A stretch of DNA of 46,722 nucleotides from UHGV virus genome UHGV-0200285; one strand, written 5' to 3'. The notes beneath the pieces were generated by a model. That model did no database searches and had not been told where the DNA came from. It saw only the letters and a list, made by a program, of their open reading frames with translations. This document shows positions 3,641-31,227 of this stretch, one piece after another (position 1 is the stretch's first letter; each line of letters begins with the position of its first letter). The translations under genes and the position numbers were made by a program. Source of the stretch: a virus.

Positions 3641-3922
3641 TAATATTGTGGTACTTTTTGTGGGAGTCATCCACTTACGCACTTTGTTTTGCTATGCCAG
3701 CAGTTAGCTTCTGCTGTAAAACTATTCATGCAGCAAACCTGCACTTCACCACAATGGTTAGCATACTTTTCCTGATTAAGTTATTGCCAAATATGCTGGC
3801 CATTGTTTCATGTATTGGACCTCCTTACTATTTATTAAAGAGATCCAATATTCACCACTCTGTCTGTATCTCCACTCAGGCATCAGCCTTCTTCGTTATC
3901 GTATACAGACAAACTATGAATT

Positions 3923-4138
3923 TTAATCAGTAATTATGACATTTGCTGCTGCAGGACCTTTAGCACCACTCTCTACAGAGAAGGTAACCTTTTGACCTTC
4001 AAATAAGGTTCGATAATTATCATTCTGAATCGCAGAAAAATGCACAAACACATCTTTACTACCATCAACAGGAGAAATAAAGCCAAAACCTTTATCAGCG
4101 TTAAACCATTTTACTAAACCAGTCATTTTATTTGACAT
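3923..4138 (-). CDS. cspB: cold-shock protein CspB-like
   Basis: 71 aa, [23 protein letters not shown]...; RNP1/RNP2 motifs (KGFGFI, VFVHF). Confidence 0.85.
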
Positions 4139-4437
4139 TCTACATTCCTTAACTTGAGCCTTTCGGCATAAATGGCTTGTATAACAGAAACGACTTCGTA
4201 CTTAATTGGAGAGACTCAAAGAAGGAATAAGTGAATAACACCTGAAATGAGAACTGCTTTAGTAAACTACTTCGTATATCGTCTGTTCTTCAAACCGACG
4301 CAATCATTAACGCATAGTTGAACATATGAAGCAATGTTTATTTTAGACATCCAGCCATCTTCAACCCCATCAAAAAACTATAGCTTTCTTCAGGAACGTG
4401 TGTATAGTGCGCCAAGTTATCAGTATTAAGGAATTTT

Positions 4438-10919: not shown

Positions 10920-11497
10920 GATGGCAGCCTCCGATAACAGTGAATTTCGCTGGTGGTGAACTGAACGGGGTTGGCGTAACCGGCGTTATCGGAAACCGGC
11001 GCACCTTTCGGTGCCCCCGTCCAGCCCACCATAATTTGGGTGTGCGCAGACGCAGACGATAAAAAAAACGCTGGCGCGTCATATATCGCCGATAACATTT
11101 CCAGGACGCCAATCCCGGCACCCGCTTTATAAGGTGCCTGAACAGTGTAACGTCCCGGAATGGAAGAATCAATGTGCTGGTGGTCCTTCACACTCAACAA
11201 AATCACGCCTGAATTTCCACAAAGGACTAAAGCACTCATGCGGGTAGTCTTTGCGAAGATAGATAACGCGCTGTGTTTCTGGTTCCCAACGAATAACATG
11301 GACATAAAGCCCTCTTCCGTCACGAAACCAGCGGTTAAGTTCCCGCACAACTCGCCCCCCACAGTCAGGTAAAGTTCTCTGTGGTTACTTACAGCCAGGT
11401 GATTTGGTAATCTGCATTCATGCCGTAACAACAGGTGTTCAGCGACACTGACCACCAGCTGTTGCGACAAACGGTTATTTGCCGTTAAACTGTTCAT
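10889..11497 (-). CDS. hypothetical early protein
   Basis: 202-aa ORF; 4-nt ATGA-type overlap with upstream gene; no family recognised. Confidence 0.45.
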   Translation of the reverse strand: MNSLTANNRLSQQLVVSVAEHLLLRHECRLPNHLAVSNHRELYLTVGGELCGNLTAGFVTEEGFMSMLFVGNQKHSALSIFAKTTRMSALVLCGNSGVILLSVKDHQHIDSSIPGRYTVQAPYKAGAGIGVLEMLSAIYDAPAFFLSSASAHTQIMVGWTGAPKGAPVSDNAGYANPVQFTTSEIHCYRRLPSWLLSQPSLV

Positions 11498-12289: not shown

Positions 12290-12379
12290 ACAATATGTAC
12301 CTCCGGTATACATATTACATGATTGAAATGAACCTTCAAGATACTTGCACCTTATCGGTACAAAGGTTTTAATTTCGTT
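12290..12379. promoter_or_regulatory. divergent immunity control region (candidate pR, pRM and operators)
   Basis: Minus strand TTGAAG-N16-TAATAT then GGAGG RBS for cro; plus strand TTGCAC-N16-TTTTAA ending ~7 nt before the CI ATG (leaderless-type); ATACAT/ATGTA-containing inverted repeats at 12295-12325. Confidence 0.4.
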
Positions 12380-13053
12380 ATGAAAACAATCCATGACATC
12401 CGGCGGTCTAACGCCAGAAAACTGAGAGATGGTGTTGGCGGAAATTCATCCTTTGCCACCATGATTGATCGCGAGCCAACCCAAACCAGCAGGTTTATGG
12501 GGGATGGCGCTACTAAAATATCGGTGACAGCATGGCACGGCACATCGAAAAATGTTTCGACCTGCCTGTCGGATGGCTTGATCAAGAACACCAGACAACG
12601 AACATCACAAAAAAACCTGATGTTTCAATCACTAACAAACAAATAACGTTAGTCCCTGTCATATCATGGGTACAGGCCGGAGCATGGAAAGAAGTTGGCT
12701 ATTCTGAGGTTGATTTGAGCACAGCAGAAACTTATCCCTGCCCTGTACCCTGTGGCGAAATGACTTATATCTTGCGGGTGATTGGTGATTCAATGATTGA
12801 TGAGTACCGCCCTGGAGACATGATTTTTGTTGATCCCGAAGTCCCTGCCTGCCACGGTGACGACGTTATTGCATTGATGCACGATACAGGCGAAACCACC
12901 TTCAAGCGATTGATAGAAGATGGAACACAGCGTTATCTCAAAGCATTAAACCCAAACTGGCCTGAGCCTTACATTAAGATTAACGGTAATTGCTCTATAA
13001 TTGGTACAGTGATTTTCTCGGGAAAACCAAGAAGATACACAATAAAGGCCTAA
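12380..13053 (+). pseudogene. CI-like repressor (HTH plus S24 peptidase domain) interrupted by a frameshift in an A4 run
   Basis: Frame 2 encodes HTH (12380..12516); frame 1 from 12517 encodes NIGDSMARHIEKCF...PVGWLD... and S24-type domain (VIGDSM ... K) to 13053; one extra A in 12515-12518 would restore a ~225-aa protein. Confidence 0.6.
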
Positions 13054-13065
13054 TCAATATTTATG

Positions 13066-13089
13066 AACCTGCTTCGGCAGGTTTTTTTA
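13066..13089 (+). terminator. intrinsic terminator after CI
   Basis: AACCTGC-TTCG-GCAGGTT stem followed by TTTTTTTA. Confidence 0.6.
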
Positions 13090-13092
13090 TAC

Positions 13093-13128
13093 TTGACAAT
13101 GTACCCATGAGATACATAATGTATCCAA
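13093..13128 (+). promoter_or_regulatory. candidate pL with operator palindrome
   Basis: TTGACA-N17-CATAAT; overlapping 15-bp perfect inverted repeat GATACAT-A-ATGTATC at 13111-13125. Confidence 0.45.
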
Positions 13129-13721
13129 AAGAAACATGAGGCAGGCAAGATTCAAACAAAATTTGGTTGCAACACGGCGTATGGCACATGCGTCGTTAGC
13201 GGTCTGGGGACGTTAAAGGGGACAATCCACTTCTTGCTCGGGCAAACAAACCAAGTAGCCGGAATGTGCAAGTCAATGATGATGCTGATAAGACGCCTAA
13301 CCAGCGTGGCGATCCGGTTTGACGCCTGGGAAGAGACCAGGGTGCAACGATGAGGGCATTTATGGAGCCGCGACAAAGTGTGGTGCCGTAACTGGCTAAG
13401 TGCTCTCAGTGTTGTGGTAATCCGCGAAATGGCGCGGCGGTAAGTATGGCGGGGTTACTCTTTCCCCGTTGAGGACACCGGATTGTCAGGTTGACCATAC
13501 GCCTGAGTGACAACCCCACCACAACAGCCACTGCTTTGGCGGTACCAGTTTGTACACTTTCTTCCGGCTGGTACCGCTCTTTTTACAAAACAGAGAAGAG
13601 CATCACCGGACGACGGGCTCATAACCCAATCCATCCGGGCGGCTGCCACCGCAGGTGTTCTTCTCTGTTTTGTGGAGAAACCAACCGACCTTGCAGGGTT
13701 GATATGATGAGGAGCAGCAAA

Positions 13722-14084
13722 ATGGCTAGCGAACGCAGTACTGATGTGCAGGCATTTATCGGGGAGCTGGACGGCGGCGTATTTGAAACCAAAATCGGCG
13801 CAGTTCTCAGTGAAGTCGCTTCCGGTGTGATGAACACGAAAACCAAAGGTAAGGTCTCACTCAACCTGGAAATCGAACCATTTGATGAGAACCGTGTGAA
13901 AATCAAACACAAACTCTCATATGTTCGCCCGACTAACCGCGGGAAAATTTCCGAAGAAGACACCACCGAAACGCCGATGTATGTCAATCGCGGTGGTCGC
14001 CTGACTATTCTGCAGGAAGACCGGGGACAATTACTGACTCTTGCCGGTGAGCCTGACGGAAAACTACGCGCAGCAGGTCATTAA
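13722..14084 (+). CDS. YfdP-like early protein
   Basis: ORF 13491..14084; ATG at 13722 with GAGGAG RBS gives 120 aa; resembles CPS-53 YfdP from memory. Confidence 0.5.
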   Translation: MASERSTDVQAFIGELDGGVFETKIGAVLSEVASGVMNTKTKGKVSLNLEIEPFDENRVKIKHKLSYVRPTNRGKISEEDTTETPMYVNRGGRLTILQEDRGQLLTLAGEPDGKLRAAGH

Positions 14085-24641: not shown

Positions 24642-27022
24642 TAGATTGACTCCCCCACCTGAGCATCAGTCAATGCCTTGTGCCATATTCTGAAATTCCT
24701 TACATGACCAAATAAATGACGTAACCCGGCTGTAGTCTGGCCTCCAATACGGATAATTGCGGTGTTCTGAATACAGGACCATGTGGTTTTTGTTTCGCTG
24801 GATATACGCCCGTTACTTACTGCGCATGTAGACTGATCAGACTTTACACGCATCCCCATAACCATTTTTTCAAGTGATGCATTTTCGTTTATCCGTCTGT
24901 TAGACCCACCAATATCGCAATAAGGAAATCCGTCGTAATCTGCTGAAGAACCGAAGCCAAGAATAATAGCCGCTCCGGTTTGATGACCGCCGGTATCAAA
25001 AACACGCGGTGCTGCATTTGGCGTTTTATACCAGTTCTTATGTACCTCACAAAGAACCGTAAAAGGAAGATTATAAAGATTATTCTTAATGGGAACTGTG
25101 ACTATATCGCTTGCGCGGGTCGCCGCCGTCGTTCCTGATATAATAAAAGATGATACACAAGGCCCATTTTCTACTTGTGGGGTGGCCAGATAAATATAGT
25201 CACCAGATACGGTTGCCCCGCCCTGCTTAGGAGAATACTGTATCTGAGAACCTATTTTTAACTCCCCATCAATTGCCTGAATTGTTGCCTCTGCAAAAAT
25301 CCATCCGATAACTTCGTCCTTTCTGACTCTCGCTGTAATCCTTGAGGCAGCGCCGCCTGTCATATTAATTTCAAGCGTTTGTGTATCAATATACACATCA
25401 CCAAGAAAAGTTGTTGCGCTACCGTCATATTTATCAAATCGGATACGCAACCTTACCTGCAGTTCTGTTTTAAAACGACATGAGGTTGTCACGTATTTAT
25501 TATCGTCTGAGACATCAACTGACTTTGTTGCAGCAATTGATGCCATATTAATGGCTGAGGTTTGCCCAATCAGAGAATCGTTACAGACAAACTTTCCATA
25601 GGTAAAACCAAAACTATCCGTCCCGGTTTCGGGAACATCCATATTTGACGATCGCCCCCAACTGGCAGGGCTTTCCGAATTGAGCATGTAGTTCGTTCTT
25701 TGCCCCTCAATAAGCAGGCCATCACGTTCAAACCGTGGCTCGTCAATGGCAGCCTCTGTCAGCACACCAGATTTATTAATATAGGTTGCTTTCGATGCGC
25801 GTTTAAACTTAACAACCTTGTCGCCAGGCATCGTTATTTCATCATCACCAATAACAATCTTTTTATATGACGGCGAAAAGCCCGTAATCATATCCAGCGA
25901 ATCGTTAAATGGTATCCACACATCAGGCAGCGGCTGTAAGACATATTTATACGGCTCCGCAGCCTGGCTTGCGTACTCTCTGGCTGCATCTTCGCTTGCT
26001 TTAGCTGCCGTCTGGCTTGCTGCCGATGCTTTCGCTGAGTTCGCAGCCGCTGTTTCGCTCACCTTTGCGTTGGTTTCACTGGTTTTTGCTGCTTTTTGAC
26101 TGTTAGCTGATGCAGTGGCAGAAGCAGCAGCCGCGCTTGCAGAACCAGCTGCAGCACTCTCGCTTTCGGCTGCTGCATCCTGACTGCTTTTCGCCGCAGT
26201 TTCGCTGGCTTTGGCATTCGTTTCGCTGGTCTTCGCTGCCGTCTGGCTGGACTTTGCGTTAGTTTCACTCGTCTTCGCTGCTTTCTGACTGTTAGCCGCA
26301 GCAGTTGCTGATCCAGCAGCTGAAGTCGCAGAACCGGCTGCCGCGCTCTCGCTTTCGGCTGCTGCATCCTGACTGCTTTTCGCCGCAGTTTCACTGGCTT
26401 TGGCATTCGTTTCGCTGGTTTTCGCTGCCGTCTGGCTGGACTTTGCGTTGGTTTCGCTCGTCTTTGCGGCTGTCTCGCTATTTTTCGCGTTGGTTTCTGA
26501 TTTTTTGGCTGCTGTCGCGGAGTTTTCTGATGCAGTCTGTGAGGTCGCTGCCGCCTGTGCACTATTAGCTGCATTCGTTTCTGAGGTTTTCGCCGCGTTC
26601 TTCGATGATGCCGCTGCAGTTTCGGATTTCTTTGCCGCCGCTGCGCTCTGAGAGGCGGCTTCGGCGTTGCGTGCCGCTTCTTCCACCATTTCCTCAAAAC
26701 GACGCAATGCCTCCGGCATGACATCATCTTCCGTCATGGCACCGAGAAAATCATTCAGCGTACCTGGTCTGGAACCTTCATAGACGGTAATGGTTCCGGC
26801 ATGTGAAGGCGGAAAACCTTCAACAAGCAGGATAACGCTGTACTGGCCATACTCAACATCCATGCTGTAACGCCCGGCTTCATCCGGATTTTCAGAGGCC
26901 ACCGTGTTCACCAGTACCGTGGTGCTGTTACGCTTTGCCTTCAGTTGAATAGTGCAGTTCTGTATTGGTTTTCCCGCACCATCTTTCAGCACACCTGAGA
27001 TTTTTACTGCTGCCATATCCAC
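24641..27022 (-). CDS. stf: side tail fibre protein Stf-like with internal tandem repeats
   Basis: 793 aa; lambda Stf-like N-terminus (MAAVKISGVLKDGAGKPIQNCTIQLKA); long Ala/Ser/Thr/Lys repeat region; distinct C-terminal domain. Confidence 0.75.
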   Translation of the reverse strand: MDMAAVKISGVLKDGAGKPIQNCTIQLKAKRNSTTVLVNTVASENPDEAGRYSMDVEYGQYSVILLVEGFPPSHAGTITVYEGSRPGTLNDFLGAMTEDDVMPEALRRFEEMVEEAARNAEAASQSAAAAKKSETAAASSKNAAKTSETNAANSAQAAATSQTASENSATAAKKSETNAKNSETAAKTSETNAKSSQTAAKTSETNAKASETAAKSSQDAAAESESAAAGSATSAAGSATAAANSQKAAKTSETNAKSSQTAAKTSETNAKASETAAKSSQDAAAESESAAAGSASAAAASATASANSQKAAKTSETNAKVSETAAANSAKASAASQTAAKASEDAAREYASQAAEPYKYVLQPLPDVWIPFNDSLDMITGFSPSYKKIVIGDDEITMPGDKVVKFKRASKATYINKSGVLTEAAIDEPRFERDGLLIEGQRTNYMLNSESPASWGRSSNMDVPETGTDSFGFTYGKFVCNDSLIGQTSAINMASIAATKSVDVSDDNKYVTTSCRFKTELQVRLRIRFDKYDGSATTFLGDVYIDTQTLEINMTGGAASRITARVRKDEVIGWIFAEATIQAIDGELKIGSQIQYSPKQGGATVSGDYIYLATPQVENGPCVSSFIISGTTAATRASDIVTVPIKNNLYNLPFTVLCEVHKNWYKTPNAAPRVFDTGGHQTGAAIILGFGSSADYDGFPYCDIGGSNRRINENASLEKMVMGMRVKSDQSTCAVSNGRISSETKTTWSCIQNTAIIRIGGQTTAGLRHLFGHVRNFRIWHKALTDAQVGESI
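26040..26480. repeat. tandem ~189-bp direct repeat (about 2.2 copies) inside stf
   Basis: CTCGCTTTCGGCTGCTGCATCC recurs at 26158 and 26347; encodes repeated ~63-aa segment. Confidence 0.7.
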
Positions 27023-27080
27023 TCCACAAAAAAGCCCGCCTGAACCGGCGGGCTGTCATAACACTGTGTTACCTGGCTAA

Positions 27081-27680
27081 TCAGAATTTATAACCGACAC
27101 CCACGATGAAACCGTCAGTGCGCCAGTCACCACTGCCGGAACCTTCATAAGCAAGGTCAATGGCCACGGATTCGGTCGGGTTAAACTGCACGCCAGCCCC
27201 CCACGCCAGAGACGTGTTGCTGTGGCGACCGTCATCACTTCCGGTCAGCACATCGTGCGTTTTCCCCTTGTTGTCAGTTACGCGGAGATAATCCCCGGAG
27301 AAGGTCGACACACGGCTGTAAGCCATACCCGCCATCGCATAAGCACTGAACCATTCATTCACGCGTACAGATGGCCCCGCCATCATGCTGAACCAGCGGT
27401 TACGCACGGAATCTTCATGCCAGCGGGTATCGCTGTAATGCGTTTTTTGCTCATCTTTGGCATTGGCATAACTGAATGACGTCACCAGCCCCAGCGTGTC
27501 CGTAAATTCATAACGGTATTTCACGTTAATGCCCTTCAGGTCATCACTGCCTGGCATATCAGTATGGGTCTGAAGATACCCGGCGCTTAGTGTGGACTGA
27601 TGCTCTGCTGCGCTCGCTGGCGTACCAGCGGCAACCAGCCAGACTACTGCGGACAGAATAACAGCACATAATTTACGCAT
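27081..27680 (-). CDS. lom: Lom-like outer membrane protein (Ail/Lom family)
   Basis: 199 aa with signal peptide and beta-barrel alternation ending GVGYKF. Confidence 0.8.
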   Translation of the reverse strand: MRKLCAVILSAVVWLVAAGTPASAAEHQSTLSAGYLQTHTDMPGSDDLKGINVKYRYEFTDTLGLVTSFSYANAKDEQKTHYSDTRWHEDSVRNRWFSMMAGPSVRVNEWFSAYAMAGMAYSRVSTFSGDYLRVTDNKGKTHDVLTGSDDGRHSNTSLAWGAGVQFNPTESVAIDLAYEGSGSGDWRTDGFIVGVGYKF

Positions 27681-27747
27681 AATTACCTCTCGCTTTTCTG
27701 CAATAAAAAAGGCGTCATTTCTGACGCCCGTATTGGGGTTATAAAAT

Positions 27748-30700
27748 TCAGCTGATACTGATGCCTGCGGTGGCTTTCTTCATCACCACAACCAGCAAAT
27801 CGCTGATACTTGCTGTGGGATACCAGTCATTTACCAGCCATGCTGACACCGAAAACTCCAGCGTCATGTGACCGTGACCGGCAGGCATATCAATAACGCC
27901 ACTGTAAATCAGCGTATTATCCAGCGCGGTACGGTTATAAATTTCAGCACCGTTTTTCCGCACTATCAGACGGCATGAGGAGTAAATATCAGTATGCTCT
28001 CTCTCATGTTTAGCGCCGCTGAATGCCACCGCCGGAATAACAATCTGCCGGTCAAACGGCTGATCGTCATAAACCCTGACGGTAATGGTCCCTGATGGCC
28101 ACCGCTCCGGTGCACGGGAGTCCCGGGGGAAAGCTTTGCCCACCGTTTTAACAATATCGCCTTCAATCTGGTTGGCTGACAGTTTTCCCAGAATCCGGCA
28201 GTTCTGATTAATCGTGACATTGTTGAGCGTCCCGGAGTTCGCATTCACGTTACCGCTGATATCTGCATTTTTCGCCGTCAGCCGCCCGTCCGGTGTCAGG
28301 GAAAATGCCGGAGGATTACCGCCGCTGGTAATGGTGGGAGCCGTCAGGTATTTCAGGAACACTTCGTTCATGAATATCTGATCGCCCTGACCAACAAACA
28401 TCGGCTTTGTGTTGCCATTCGCAGGATTAATCATCGCAATCCTGTCCGCCGCCAGCAGCACCTGACTCTGCATACCGTCAGGGGTATTCTCAATACCGGC
28501 ACCAATACCCGCGATATAAAGGCGTCCGTCCTGCATCTGCTGCAGCTTCACAGCCCACATGCTGTTCAGGTTATTATTTGTATCAACCTGAACCTTCTGT
28601 ATCTGCTGGATCGCTGCACTCTGGTCTTCCAGTTTCTTATTGACGGTCTGCGTGATTTCATTGCTGACATCCGTAATGGACATCCTGATTTCAGCCAGGT
28701 CAGGCGCAAGCTGACCGTTATCAATCTGCGTCCACAACTCCTGAGCCAGATGGGTTTTCCCTATCTCTCCTTTGAAAAAATCCAGATAGCCGGATGCATC
28801 ATCACTCGGCTGGCCAACAGCCTCCACAAATGCCGATTTGCCAACGGTGTTCACACTGCGGATGTAAAAATAATAATCATGGCCCGGCCTGATATTGATA
28901 CTGGCAGCTATCCAGTACAGCGCCGTGCCAAGATAGCGCGCTGTGGTTTCAACCTGTCTGATATCCGCAATCCGCTTTTCCGAGAACCAGAATTCAAACT
29001 GTACCGTCGGGTCATAAACGGCAAGATGCGGCGTGGCGGTTATCTGAAAATACCCCGGTGTCAGCTCAATCCGCGACGGTGCTGCCGGTGCGGCAATCCG
29101 GAACGATACCGACGCCGGATCGCCCTGCTGCCCCCAGGCATTTGCCGCCCGGACTGTCAGCCTGTAGTTTCCCAACGCCAGTTGCGTGAAGCGGTATGTG
29201 GTTTCCGTCGTCCGGGCCGTGCTGACCAGCCGCTCACTGCCGTCATCCGCTGCCACGGTCAGGCGAAGCATAAAGCTCACGCCCTTCACCACCTTCGGCG
29301 TGTCCCAGCGCGCCAGCACCTGATATTCCCCGCTGTCTGCGGTGACTTCGGCAGTCAGGTGCTGCACCGCTGGCGGCGTGACACCATTCACCGTGCCGCT
29401 CTGGTCGCCGTCAAAGTGCGCCCCGTTATCCACGATGGCTTCTTTTTCCGGTACATGCTGCACGGCGGTGATGGCATACGTGCCGTCGTCGTTCTCACGG
29501 ATACTCACGCAGCGGAACAGGCGCTGGCGCAGCGTCGGCAGCTTCAGCCCCCACACGCTGTATCCGGCAACGCCGTCAGGAACACGGCTCACTTTTACCT
29601 TCACGCCGTCGGTGACGGACTGGACCTCCACGCTGACCGGATTGCCACTTCCGTCAACCTGGCTTATCAGCGTGGTACCGGAGGATGGCAGCGTGATTTC
29701 ACGGTCGAGCGTCAGCGTCCGGGTCTGGCTGTTTACCGCCAGCACGCGCCCGCCGATGCTGATACCGGCATAGTCATCATCACAGATTTCAATGACATCG
29801 CCCGGCACATGGCGAAGCCCTTCTGCGCCCACGCTGAAGTCCACGGTCTGCGTTTCCAGCAGTTCCGTTTTAATCAGCCACAGCCCGGCGCGGTGCGCCT
29901 GCCCCCGGCTGGTACAGCCAAAGGCATCCATTTTCGTGACGTTACGACCGTAACGGGCAATGGCCTGCGTGTCCTCCACAAGCTCTGTTGCCGTTTCCCA
30001 GCCGTTATTCGGGTCAATCCAGTTCACCTCAACGGCATTATGGCGGTCCTTCAGGGCGCTGAAACTGTAGCGGAACGGCGCGCCATCATCCGGCATCACC
30101 ACATTACTGCGGTTATAGGTCCACACCTTATCCGACGGCCGGTCCTGCACGAACGTCAGCGTCTGCCCGTTCCATACCGGCATACAGCGCATCGCCGAGC
30201 AGAAATCACTGAGCACATCCCACGCCTTGCGCTGTGTGGTCAGGTACGCATTACAGGTGATGCGCGGCTCCGTGCCGCCAAAGCCGTCCGGCACTGACTG
30301 GTCGCAGTACTGGCCGATGACATACAGCGCCCATTTATCCACATCCGCCGCACCAAGACGTTTCCCCATGCCGTAGCGCGGGTGGGTCAGCATATCCCAC
30401 AGACACCAGGCCATGTTGTTGCTGTATGCCGGTTTAAACGTTCCGTCCCAGATACCGCTGTATTGCCGCGTCTGCGGGTTATAGTTCGACGGCACCTGCA
30501 GAATACGCCCGCGCAGATGATAATTACGGCTCACCTGCTGGCTGCCGAACTGCTCCGAGTCCACCTGCACGCCGACCAGTGCCGTGTTCGGGTAGCACTG
30601 TTTCACATCGATAATTTCGGTGTATGACGACCAGAGCGTTTTGTTCTGCAGCTGGTCTGTGGTGCTGTCCGGTGTCATCCTGCGCATCCGGATATTGAAC

Positions 30701-31227
30701 GGGCGCGGCGGCAGGTTATCCACCACCACCGAGGCCAGATACTGCGACGTGGTTTTGCCCTTAATGGTGATGTCTTTTTCTGTCACCCAGCCACCGTTAC
30801 GCTGTATCTGAACCAGCAGGCGGACCTCCGACGGATTCCTGTCCCCCTTTGAGGTGGTTTCCACCAGTGCCTGCACACCGAAGGTAAAGCGCAGACGGTC
30901 GATGTTTGCAGACGTGATAGTCCGGGTGATCGGCGTGTCGTATTTCACTTCCGTACCCAGTACCGTCTCAGAACCTGATGATTCAAATCCCTCCGGCGGT
31001 GACTGCTCCTGCTCACCGGTCCGGAACACCACCGTGACGCCGGAGATATTGGTATTCCCCTCACTGTCCAGCACCGGCGTACTGTTCAGCAGCACGCTTT
31101 TTAATCCGTCCACCGGACCTTCAACCGGCCCTTCGCTGATGGCATCGATCACACTCAGCAGCTGCGTGGACTTCAGGTTGTCCTTCGCTTCGCGCGGGGT
31201 ATGCCCCTTACTGCTGCCTTTACCCAT
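27748..31227 (-). CDS. J: tail tip / host specificity protein J
   Basis: 1159 aa; N-terminus [24 protein letters not shown] matches lambda J from memory; C-terminal part appears divergent. Confidence 0.9.

Follow-up and report, generated by a model that had tools for sequence, protein, structure and literature searches.

The window analysed here is a virus genome of 46,722 nucleotides (nt), UHGV-0200285, which is a lambdoid prophage of the SfV / cdtI / mEp460 / Ayreon type. Between its pL-type promoter and yfdP, the first gene of the early-left operon, lies a leader of approximately 600 nt (13122-13721) that encodes no protein. On balance, this leader is probably a polycistronic non-coding precursor of the dicBF type, which, once terminated, is cleaved into stable RNAs, while read-through supplies yfdP. 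The non-coding nature of the leader, its structures, its homology and its modularity were observed here; processing is experimental in the Qin prophage of E. coli K-12 only, and for the leader the sites of processing, RNA stability and a possible action in trans are proposals. From 5′ to 3′ on the + strand, on which all its features lie, the leader consists of an A-rich stretch of about 40 nt after the presumed transcription start, the core of a double-pseudoknotted RNA (element A), a stalk (P7), an H-type pseudoknot (element B), a 12-nt linker, a DicF-family terminator hairpin, a hairpin of 21 base pairs (bp), the sequence AGGAG and the yfdP start.

The leader contains only short, overlapping open reading frames (ORFs) of 39-74 amino acids (aa), five of the six being disrupted in 7-12 of 30 close homologues. 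The remaining one (39 aa; 13234-13353) is preserved intact in all 30 of the close homologues, but in only one of 39 diverse copies of element A, where its length is out of frame in 19, an internal stop codon is present in 33 and the start codon is absent in 35. Eleven of the 30 close homologues lack the extension of yfdP to an in-frame TTG (13491). Deposited phages (Ayreon, L001 3183-3302 and 3404-3598; cdtI; 2H10) carry annotations of 'hypothetical proteins' across A and B, which were probably made in error, as the ORFs concerned lack conservation.

The guanine-cytosine (GC) content of the leader is 52.7%, compared to 45-46% for cI and yfdP-yfdQ. Since the whole window has a mean of 50.0% and the leader is at the 53rd percentile among 600-nt windows, this enrichment is local only. 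The initial annotation of this DNA had described the segment as GC-rich and devoid of a convincing protein gene, and had suggested that it may encode a structured RNA, to be checked by an Rfam search and by covariation across related phages. The absence of a protein gene is borne out by the ORF comparisons, while the compositional claim holds relative to the neighbouring genes and not relative to the window. The structured RNA is supported by the fold of the whole leader (z-score, z = -3.9), by two individual hairpins described below and by compensatory changes in A, B and P7. Rfam 15 was searched at the gathering threshold and additionally at expectation values (E) up to 10 over 12900-13900. 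No family was matched in the leader: in the latter interval there is no relevant match up to that E, A, B and P7 being unmatched, and the only Rfam matches in the window (C4, isrK and cspA) are all located outside the leader. Likewise, neither a transfer RNA (tRNA) nor a transfer-messenger RNA was found in the window by ARAGORN and the Rfam tRNA model, relaxed ARAGORN settings giving noise. The helices also indicate which strand acts as RNA, as helix cells with G-U outnumber those with A-C in A (121 vs 59), B (26 vs 13) and P7 (21 vs 5). This approximately two- to fourfold excess in all three structures suggests that the + strand is the RNA strand. In the tests described below, the structures were derived from the same sequences that were used for covariation, the copies were retrieved by pattern or BLAST, and the shuffle statistics for A, B and P7 are inflated by sequence kinship.

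The core of element A (13168-13344) is an RNA of approximately 180 nt. Its first hairpin (13175-13195) has an 11-nt loop, in which GCACAU can pair with AUGUGC in an 18-mer at 13255-13272. This second long-range pairing is a possible one, proposed from nearly invariant bases. Helix P2 (13203-13207 with 13251-13255) encloses a variable insert. The loop of hairpin P4 (13292-13308) pairs through positions 13299-13302 with 13316-13319, i.e., CACC with a downstream GGUG, represented by AACC and GGUU in the window. A further hairpin, P5, has the form CCUSG-GAAGAGA-CSAGG (13325-13341). In 40 non-redundant copies with at most 93% mutual identity, 87.4% of the cells are paired and 16 pairs have changed on both sides; the covariation score of 0.245 compares to 0.120 for shuffled alignments, none of 500 reaching 0.245, and falls to 0.08 or less with partners slid. 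With speed filters off, a covariance model of A gives 150 bits at the leader, its sole match in the window. The unpaired bases of A are extremely conserved as well. The 18-mer GUAGCCGGAAUGUGCAAG (13255-13272) is exact in 86 of 96 copies that were retrieved through another motif, and its conservation is therefore not an artefact of the first search pattern. In addition, the core could be closed by a helix between GUUGCA (13169-13174) and UGCAAC (13343-13348); this helix is present in window-type and P7-type copies and is inconsistent elsewhere.

Element A is present in 1834 of 5426 complete E. coli genomes (34%), and no RefSeq annotation lies under it among the E. coli matches listed. It was also found in 81 phage records, including those of phiV10-type podophages and of phages P1 and P7, where it lies between tRNA-Ile and ban, at 23 genome loci in at least 12 genera of Enterobacterales in a scan of one genome per species, and in many IMG/VR and metagenome contigs. 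It is confined to Enterobacterales in the data examined, and it often directly adjoins a tRNA. A ribozyme resembling that of hepatitis delta virus ('theta' type), located after a tRNA as in P1, was considered and rejected, as the helix order in A, judged by eye, misfits the nested fold of that ribozyme and no Rfam match was found.

Elements A and B are separated by the P7 stalk (13345-13414), in which CAACGAUGAGGGCAUU (13345-13360) pairs with AAGUGCUCUCAGUGUUG (13398-13414) and a variable hairpin is enclosed. The stalk is a 16-bp helix plus an extension, with 93.1% of cells paired, five pairs changed on both sides and a covariation score of 0.195 vs 0.108 after shuffling (0/500). These compensatory changes dispose of the junction sequence UGCUCU as a candidate boxA, since it belongs to the 3′ strand of P7 and has compensatory partners. 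By analogy with Qin, P7 is predicted to be an RNase III processing stalk between the modules.

Element B (13411-13525) is an H-type pseudoknot of about 115 nt. It is closed by helix P1 (13411-13417 with 13519-13525) and contains hairpin P2 (13422-13437), helix P3 (GUAUGG with CCAUAC; 13444-13449 with 13495-13500), hairpin P4 with a CU-rich loop (13450-13468) and helix P5 (GGRUUGUCA with UGACAAYCC; 13480-13488 with 13508-13516), P3 and P5 crossing each other. In 18 copies tested against 500 shuffles, 92.9% of the cells are paired and eight pairs have changed on both sides, compared to 2.7 +/- 1.3 in shuffled sets (0/500); the phage P1 copy shows compensatory changes too. Its covariance model gives 148 bits and detects one copy in the window with speed filters off. 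B shares approximately 93% identity with the Qin sequence that immediately precedes DicF. The sequence GUUG at 13411-13414 is common to the 3′ strand of P7 and to P1 of B, and the two pairings are thus mutually exclusive, the partner being either CAAC at the base of P7 (13345-13348) or CAAC in the closing helix of B (13522-13525). Together with the alternative pairing of GUUGCA, this may constitute a folding or processing switch, a suggestion read from partners that are nearly invariant.

Some minor features of B deserve mention. P5 contains an A-C mismatch in the window (13482/13514) where relatives have G-C or A-U, which looks like a half-completed compensatory change. A tRNA-like 3′ CCA after B was considered as an RNase P signal and rejected, as only 15 of 63 unique B copies have it and the commonest Qin type does not; B itself forms no cloverleaf according to ARAGORN or the Rfam tRNA model. 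CU-rich sequences (UCCUU, CUCC, UUCUUCC) occur consistently in the P4 loop of B (13450-13468), in the terminator loop (13551-13567) and in a stretch of the P2 insert of A. To judge by their letters, these variable loops resemble anti-Shine–Dalgarno seeds.

Downstream of B, the linker AGCCACUGCUUU (13526-13537) occupies the position of the Qin linker in which the 53-nt DicF has its RNase E-dependent 5′ end. RNase E follows the rule RN↓WUU (the arrow marks the cut), which the predicted site CUGC↓UUUGG in the linker fits. The DicF-family terminator hairpin (13538-13584) has a 13-bp stem, GGCGGUACCAG...CUGGUACCGC, and a 19-nt CU-rich loop, and is followed by UCUUUUU; its predicted energy is -21.2 kcal/mol (z = -4.3). 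It aligns with the DicF terminator and its flanks, with homology to the stem UUGGCGGUAYCAG...CCGCC and the subsequent U run, and variants with compensating stems occur in other phages. Unlike DicF, it carries a 19-nt deletion that removes the DicF 5′ part, including the seed UUUCUGGUGACG. Accordingly, the DicF family RF00039 was not matched in the window at the gathering score (48 bits) nor at E up to 10, whereas the Qin control reached 76.7 bits. The small RNA (sRNA) that had been mentioned as one option in the initial annotation finds an sRNA-like counterpart in this hairpin, the flanks of which are homologous to the Qin dicF locus. Next comes a perfect 21-bp hairpin with a small branched insert (13584-13674; -47.3 kcal/mol, z = -6.7), located at the position of the long hairpin of Qin (L004 4193-4342). 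Its 3′ end is 36 nt upstream of the Shine–Dalgarno sequence, and by analogy it is predicted to be an RNase III site that separates the non-coding RNAs from the yfdP messenger RNA (mRNA).

Among the closest known systems is the dicBF operon of Qin. In Qin, B is present at L004 4001-4107, between ydfC and dicB, and ends 25 nt before the Rfam DicF (4133-4184). Different DicF species are known, all arising from the dicBp transcript: a 53-nt form with a 5′ end that requires RNase E, a 190-nt form with a 5′ end that requires RNase III, and a 72-nt form with a 3′ end that requires RNase III. The 53-nt and 190-nt forms accumulate in stationary phase, and inactivation of RNase E raises the level of the 190-nt form (PMC10448788; PMC9438474). 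Counting 190 nt back from the 3′ end of DicF (L004 ~4185-4189) leads to ~3996-4000, between GUGCGCUUCC and GGUUGUGG, in the 3′ strand of the P7-type stalk at B. This implies that the long DicF consists of B, linker and DicF, and that the Qin stalk is an RNase III site. Likewise, 72 nt from the RNase E end at 4133 leads to ~4204, inside the 5′ arm (4193-4207) of the Qin long hairpin. These placements are arithmetic from published sizes and not mapped coordinates. By the same arithmetic, two-thirds of the 190-nt K-12 DicF RNA, on its 5′ side, consist of B. Both systems share a repressor gene, a promoter, a long transcript, a P7-type stalk, B, a linker, a terminator-hairpin sRNA, a long hairpin and a small protein gene; the window thus has the layout of a dicBF-type leader, with a repressor-controlled promoter followed by B, a terminator-hairpin RNA, a long hairpin and a small gene. 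They differ in that Qin has three small ORFs before the RNA part (ydfABC) and no A core, in the cargo gene, which is yfdP in the window instead of dicB, and in the terminator hairpin, which has another loop and no DicF 5′ seed in the window.

Taken together with the processing known for Qin, the following course of events can be proposed. Upon derepression, RNA polymerase would start near 13127 and transcribe A, the P7 stalk, B and the DicF-family hairpin, and most transcripts would end at the U tract of the hairpin, at ~13584. RNase III would cut the P7 stalk, yielding an A RNA of ~220 nt and an RNA of ~175 nt containing B plus the hairpin, the latter being the presumed counterpart of the 190-nt DicF species of Qin. 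RNase E may then cut the linker, which would release B and a U-tailed hairpin RNA of ~50 nt, of the kind that binds Hfq. Read-through RNA would be cut in the 21-bp hairpin, providing the yfdP-yfdQ-yfdR...xis mRNA with its own 5′ end. With such a scheme of termination and processing, the leader would both make stable RNAs and attenuate the protein-coding part of the operon.

The modules of the leader are found in many other combinations. A chain of portable RNA modules common to Qin, P1 and many other phages had not been foreseen in the initial annotation. The whole leader recurs in 135 phage records, and parts of it in 4748 of the 5426 complete E. coli genomes; among the E. coli matches listed, which were evenly spaced, the weaker ones cover the B segment only. 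At 81 loci A is present alone, at 103 B is present alone and at 27 both are adjacent, and 100 loci retrieved via B yielded only one further A. After the P7 stalk, the junction GUU/GUGG is followed by a 'slot' that accommodates different RNAs. In 200 unique copies of A, the slot is filled by tRNA-Arg(UCU) in 39 cases, which makes A with tRNA-Arg(UCU) the commonest arrangement, by B in 35, by a third RNA type (GUGAAUGCG...) in 25, by a fourth type in five and by other RNAs in 37, while 59 copies have no recognised junction. Of the non-tRNA slot RNAs displayed, all have GUUGUGG(UG) at their start, and (CA)CCACAAC closes the majority of them. The A core itself may likewise be preceded by a P7-type stalk, and the stalk therefore behaves as a spacer between modules. 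Further downstream, a DicF-like hairpin and its U run are usually followed by another long hairpin and then by a cargo gene. These genes are mutually unrelated, encoding YfdP, a 140-aa protein, 137/167-aa proteins, a Gp49-like protein and 201/262-aa membrane proteins. One example of module exchange is SfV, which has cI, the promoter and yfdP as in the window but lacks A and B; its leader contains an ORF-containing insert and a third-type slot RNA instead, and the hairpins are kept. As they can be exchanged with tRNA genes, A and B are more likely portable payload modules than dedicated regulators of yfdP.

Two of these arrangements were observed in passing. The third structured RNA type that can occupy the slot of B, GUUGUGGUGAAUGCGG...GGCACCACAAC, is unannotated and occurs in SfV (L002 3244-3378), in L135 and in Qin (L004 ~4208-4327), where it sits within the long hairpin between DicF and dicB. 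Secondly, a prophage of E. coli GPEC1258 (L003 2880-3520) carries a self-contained cassette in its late region, in the gap between portal and terminase genes and on the opposite strand, consisting of a promoter, A, tRNA-Arg(UCU), the conserved hairpin AUCACGCCUAAGGACCGUGAU, a terminator RNA resembling DicF, a further hairpin and a gene for 140 aa.

Several points weigh against a dicBF-type precursor as the full explanation. Both the cleavage sites and the accumulation of A and B as separate RNAs are an extrapolation from Qin, where B is present and the A core is absent. The DicF 5′ seed is absent from the hairpin in the window, which makes a role as trans-acting sRNA uncertain. A strong terminator before the excision genes leaves room for an unrecognised mechanism of read-through. 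Furthermore, the derivation of the structures from the tested sequences themselves and the retrieval of copies by pattern or BLAST tilt the slid-partner controls toward the proposed structures. Lastly, the conservation of unpaired bases in A exceeds what a passive processed fragment needs, indicating a further function.

A more novel explanation is tentative and has perhaps a one-in-three standing: A, and perhaps B, would represent a new class of structured phage RNA that acts on a conserved host machine or is itself catalytic. Candidates for this machine are RNA polymerase, the ribosome, an RNase and an enzyme related to tRNA or to defence. In that case, temperate enterobacterial phages may carry exchangeable RNA cassettes alongside tRNAs, both within their early operons and as part of small add-on gene cassettes. 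Such a class is compatible with the double pseudoknot, with an 18-mer that is unpaired and almost invariant, and with the location immediately against tRNA ends. Phage-borne, elaborately folded RNAs adjoining tRNA genes are familiar from ROOL, GOLLD and the 'species 1/2' of the T4 tRNA cluster. Compared to ROOL and GOLLD, A is much smaller, occurs only in Enterobacterales in the data examined and has no Rfam match, so the likeness is one of context only.

The leader sits where lambda has nutL and N, as had been pointed out in the initial annotation, and no recognisable N or boxA is present. A pattern search of the leader detected no boxA, the near-match at 13575-13583 being the 3′ arm of the terminator; yfdP has no Pfam match, no arginine-rich N-like ORF was seen, and the P2 hairpin of B, compared by eye to lambda boxB, does not match it. 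A put-like antitermination RNA had been put forward for this position. In an analogue of HK022 put, nascent A and/or B would bind RNA polymerase and cause read-through of the leader and of later terminators, thereby replacing N. The put elements of HK022 measure approximately 65-75 nt, contain two stem-loops and come as a pair, one per early operon. What the leader has in common with them is its position, with a structured nascent RNA emerging immediately after pL in an N-less lambdoid phage. Such a function would also overcome the strong terminator (-21 kcal/mol) upstream of yfdP...xis, it would agree with the fact that in most cassettes A is followed by one or two terminator-like hairpins, and the conserved unpaired bases of A would fit binding to a conserved host machine. 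Moreover, mEp460 carries the leader; its membership of the phage collection described as Nus-dependent (PMC11893012, a paper that does not mention mEp460) is assumed from its name. Against these considerations stands that A (180 nt) and B (115 nt), both pseudoknotted, occur once each: model searches with filters off revealed no second copy in the 46.7-kilobase window, including the pR operon, and the HK022 immunity region (positions 24000-31000) contains no match to either covariance model. In addition, SfV manages with promoter, cI and yfdP but neither A nor B, and the dicB operons of Qin and O157 are read through a like terminator without A. In Qin, RNase III cuts between the modules (PMC10448788), and where a tRNA takes the place of B, its cleavage by RNase P would sever the tether to the polymerase. 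B is also replaceable by a tRNA or other folded RNAs. On the whole, the put-like proposal is unlikely.

A long untranslated leader is exposed to Rho. The leader could therefore be a purely cis-acting mRNA element that protects the yfdP mRNA, insulates it from Rho or sets its translation, with no separate RNAs being made. Its dense folding would mask Rho loading sites, and the short distance between the 21-bp hairpin and the Shine–Dalgarno sequence would suit this role. Nevertheless, the modules precede unrelated genes, adjoin tRNAs and in P1 are far from any start codon, they are conserved far above the need of simple stability hairpins, and in Qin the B-DicF RNA accumulates as a discrete species (PMC10448788). 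Such a function by itself is thus rather improbable.

The proximity of B to the terminator, at 12 nt, recalls a riboswitch-like attenuator in which B would switch termination upon sensing a ligand, a tRNA or a protein. B is indeed compact, conserved and always accompanied by an intrinsic terminator ~15-40 nt downstream, and the two alternative partners of GUUG at 13411-13414 could provide a switch. However, no alternative pairing between B and the terminator arms covaries: pairing of GGCGGUA in B with the 3′ arm of the terminator, a candidate antiterminator, was rejected, as GGCGGUA is constant while the terminator stems vary (GGUGGC..., GGCGGGUAU...). These terminators also follow tRNA-Arg or unrelated slot RNAs, and no Rfam riboswitch was matched, leaving an attenuator of this kind with little probability.

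The slot elements displayed share a terminal inverted repeat, GTTGTGG...CCACAAC, and are swapped between phages, as would be expected for miniature inverted-repeat elements without RNA function. That they are selfish repeat DNA is nonetheless very improbable, because the compensatory changes, like the strand-specific excess of G-U, speak for selection on RNA, their orientation is fixed relative to promoter and terminator, and a tRNA gene fills the same slot. Finally, a real small-protein gene among the short ORFs (the hypothetical proteins of Ayreon, cdtI and 2H10) is hardly credible, since, despite the ORFs annotated in several phage records and the 39-aa ORF kept by the close homologues, that ORF is lost in nearly all diverse A copies, the other ORFs are broken among the close homologues and substitutions follow helices, not codons.

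For the dicBF-type precursor, two further comparisons are informative. In P1, B directly follows the C1-controlled ban promoter and is itself followed by a terminator hairpin, and A is found directly after tRNA-Ile, before ban. Unlike in the window, the order of A and B is reversed and they are 2.3 kilobases apart, with tRNA genes and tciABC in between. The P1 annotation shows only a misc_feature 'dicF-like region' over the 3′ half of B. The RNase III stalks of ribosomal RNA operons and of T7 early mRNA are, like P7 and the 21-bp hairpin, long helices formed by the sequences on either side of a module, whose cutting frees the neighbours, and the geometry is shared; the sequences are unrelated, and on the side of the leader cleavage has been demonstrated for the Qin homologue only. 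In contrast, the M3 RNA of phi80, a substrate of RNase P, was rejected as a relative: it is the oop homologue in the phi80 record, and phi80 has N and neither A nor B.

Part of this picture is already known, i.e., the architecture of sRNA-generating operons, the diversity of DicF-like RNAs and the 'dicF-like region' of P1. In the literature found on Qin, the 190-nt RNA figures as a DicF precursor, with no description of the pseudoknot of B. The A RNA, the B pseudoknot, the stalk-and-slot layout and the exchangeability with tRNAs were not found in Rfam 15 or in the full-text literature, a search outside which some older dicF work falls. The conserved sequence strings had no literature match either, with earlier remarks on conservation upstream of dicF being possible in that older work. 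Two strongly conserved pseudoknotted RNAs supported by covariation are unannotated in some of the best-studied genomes, A in about one third of complete E. coli genomes and in P1, and B in K-12. Recognition of A and B removes spurious 'hypothetical protein' calls from many phage records and offers a structural reason for the known processing of DicF through RNase III as well as RNase E. It also defines a portable cassette system composed of a stalk, a slot RNA or tRNA, an sRNA with terminator, a hairpin and a cargo gene. The N-less lambdoid group to which the window belongs uses no put-type element that is recognisable by sequence or copy pattern.

The surroundings of the leader agree with its assignment to the early-left operon. 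Across the stretches compared, the window is 99.9-100% identical to a prophage of E. coli VG38-53E1. The gene of the LexA-family repressor cI (12380-13053) is followed by an intrinsic terminator that ends its transcript (13065-13090, +), with an 8-bp stem GAACCTGC/GCAGGTTT at 13065-13084 and a subsequent T run; it is already annotated as a terminator in phages Ayreon and SfV. The pL-type sigma-70 promoter directly after it (13093-13120, +; TTGACA-16-CATAAT, 11 of 12 matches) carries a promoter annotation in Ayreon. Between its hexamers sits the operator ATGTACC-N7-TACAT (13099-13117), of which the half-sites recur at 12295-12314 in the cI-cro intergenic region. These common half-sites identify the promoter as repressor-controlled and of the pL type, in agreement with the pL candidate that had been placed here, and transcription of the leader presumably starts near 13127. 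On the other side, the Shine–Dalgarno sequence AGGAG (13710-13714) precedes yfdP (RefSeq name; + strand), which extends from an ATG at 13722 to 14084 and encodes 120 aa. The early-left operon continues with yfdQ (DUF2303), yfdR (HD domain), a gene for a DUF551 protein and an excisionase-like gene.

The cI gene is split into two ORFs (12380-12646 and 12532-13053) by a 1-nt deletion near 12515, where a run of five A residues in Ayreon and SfV is reduced to four. Either the frameshift is real and inactivating, in which case pL would be derepressed or the prophage would be defective, or the homopolymer was misread in sequencing. Within the pR operon, the cro-like and CII (CP76) genes are followed downstream by a full-length match to the C4 antisense RNA (10949-11036, - strand; 82.8 bits) and by a match to the Hfq-binding isrK RNA (11061-11137, - strand; 61.7 bits). 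They represent an RNA immunity module of the P1-immI / Gifsy-1 type within a lambdoid early-right operon, and the 202-aa and 95-aa ORFs listed over them are probably spurious. A full-length match to the cspA thermoregulator (3860-4299, - strand; 156.7 bits) marks a prophage-borne cold-shock gene with a structured 5′ untranslated region.

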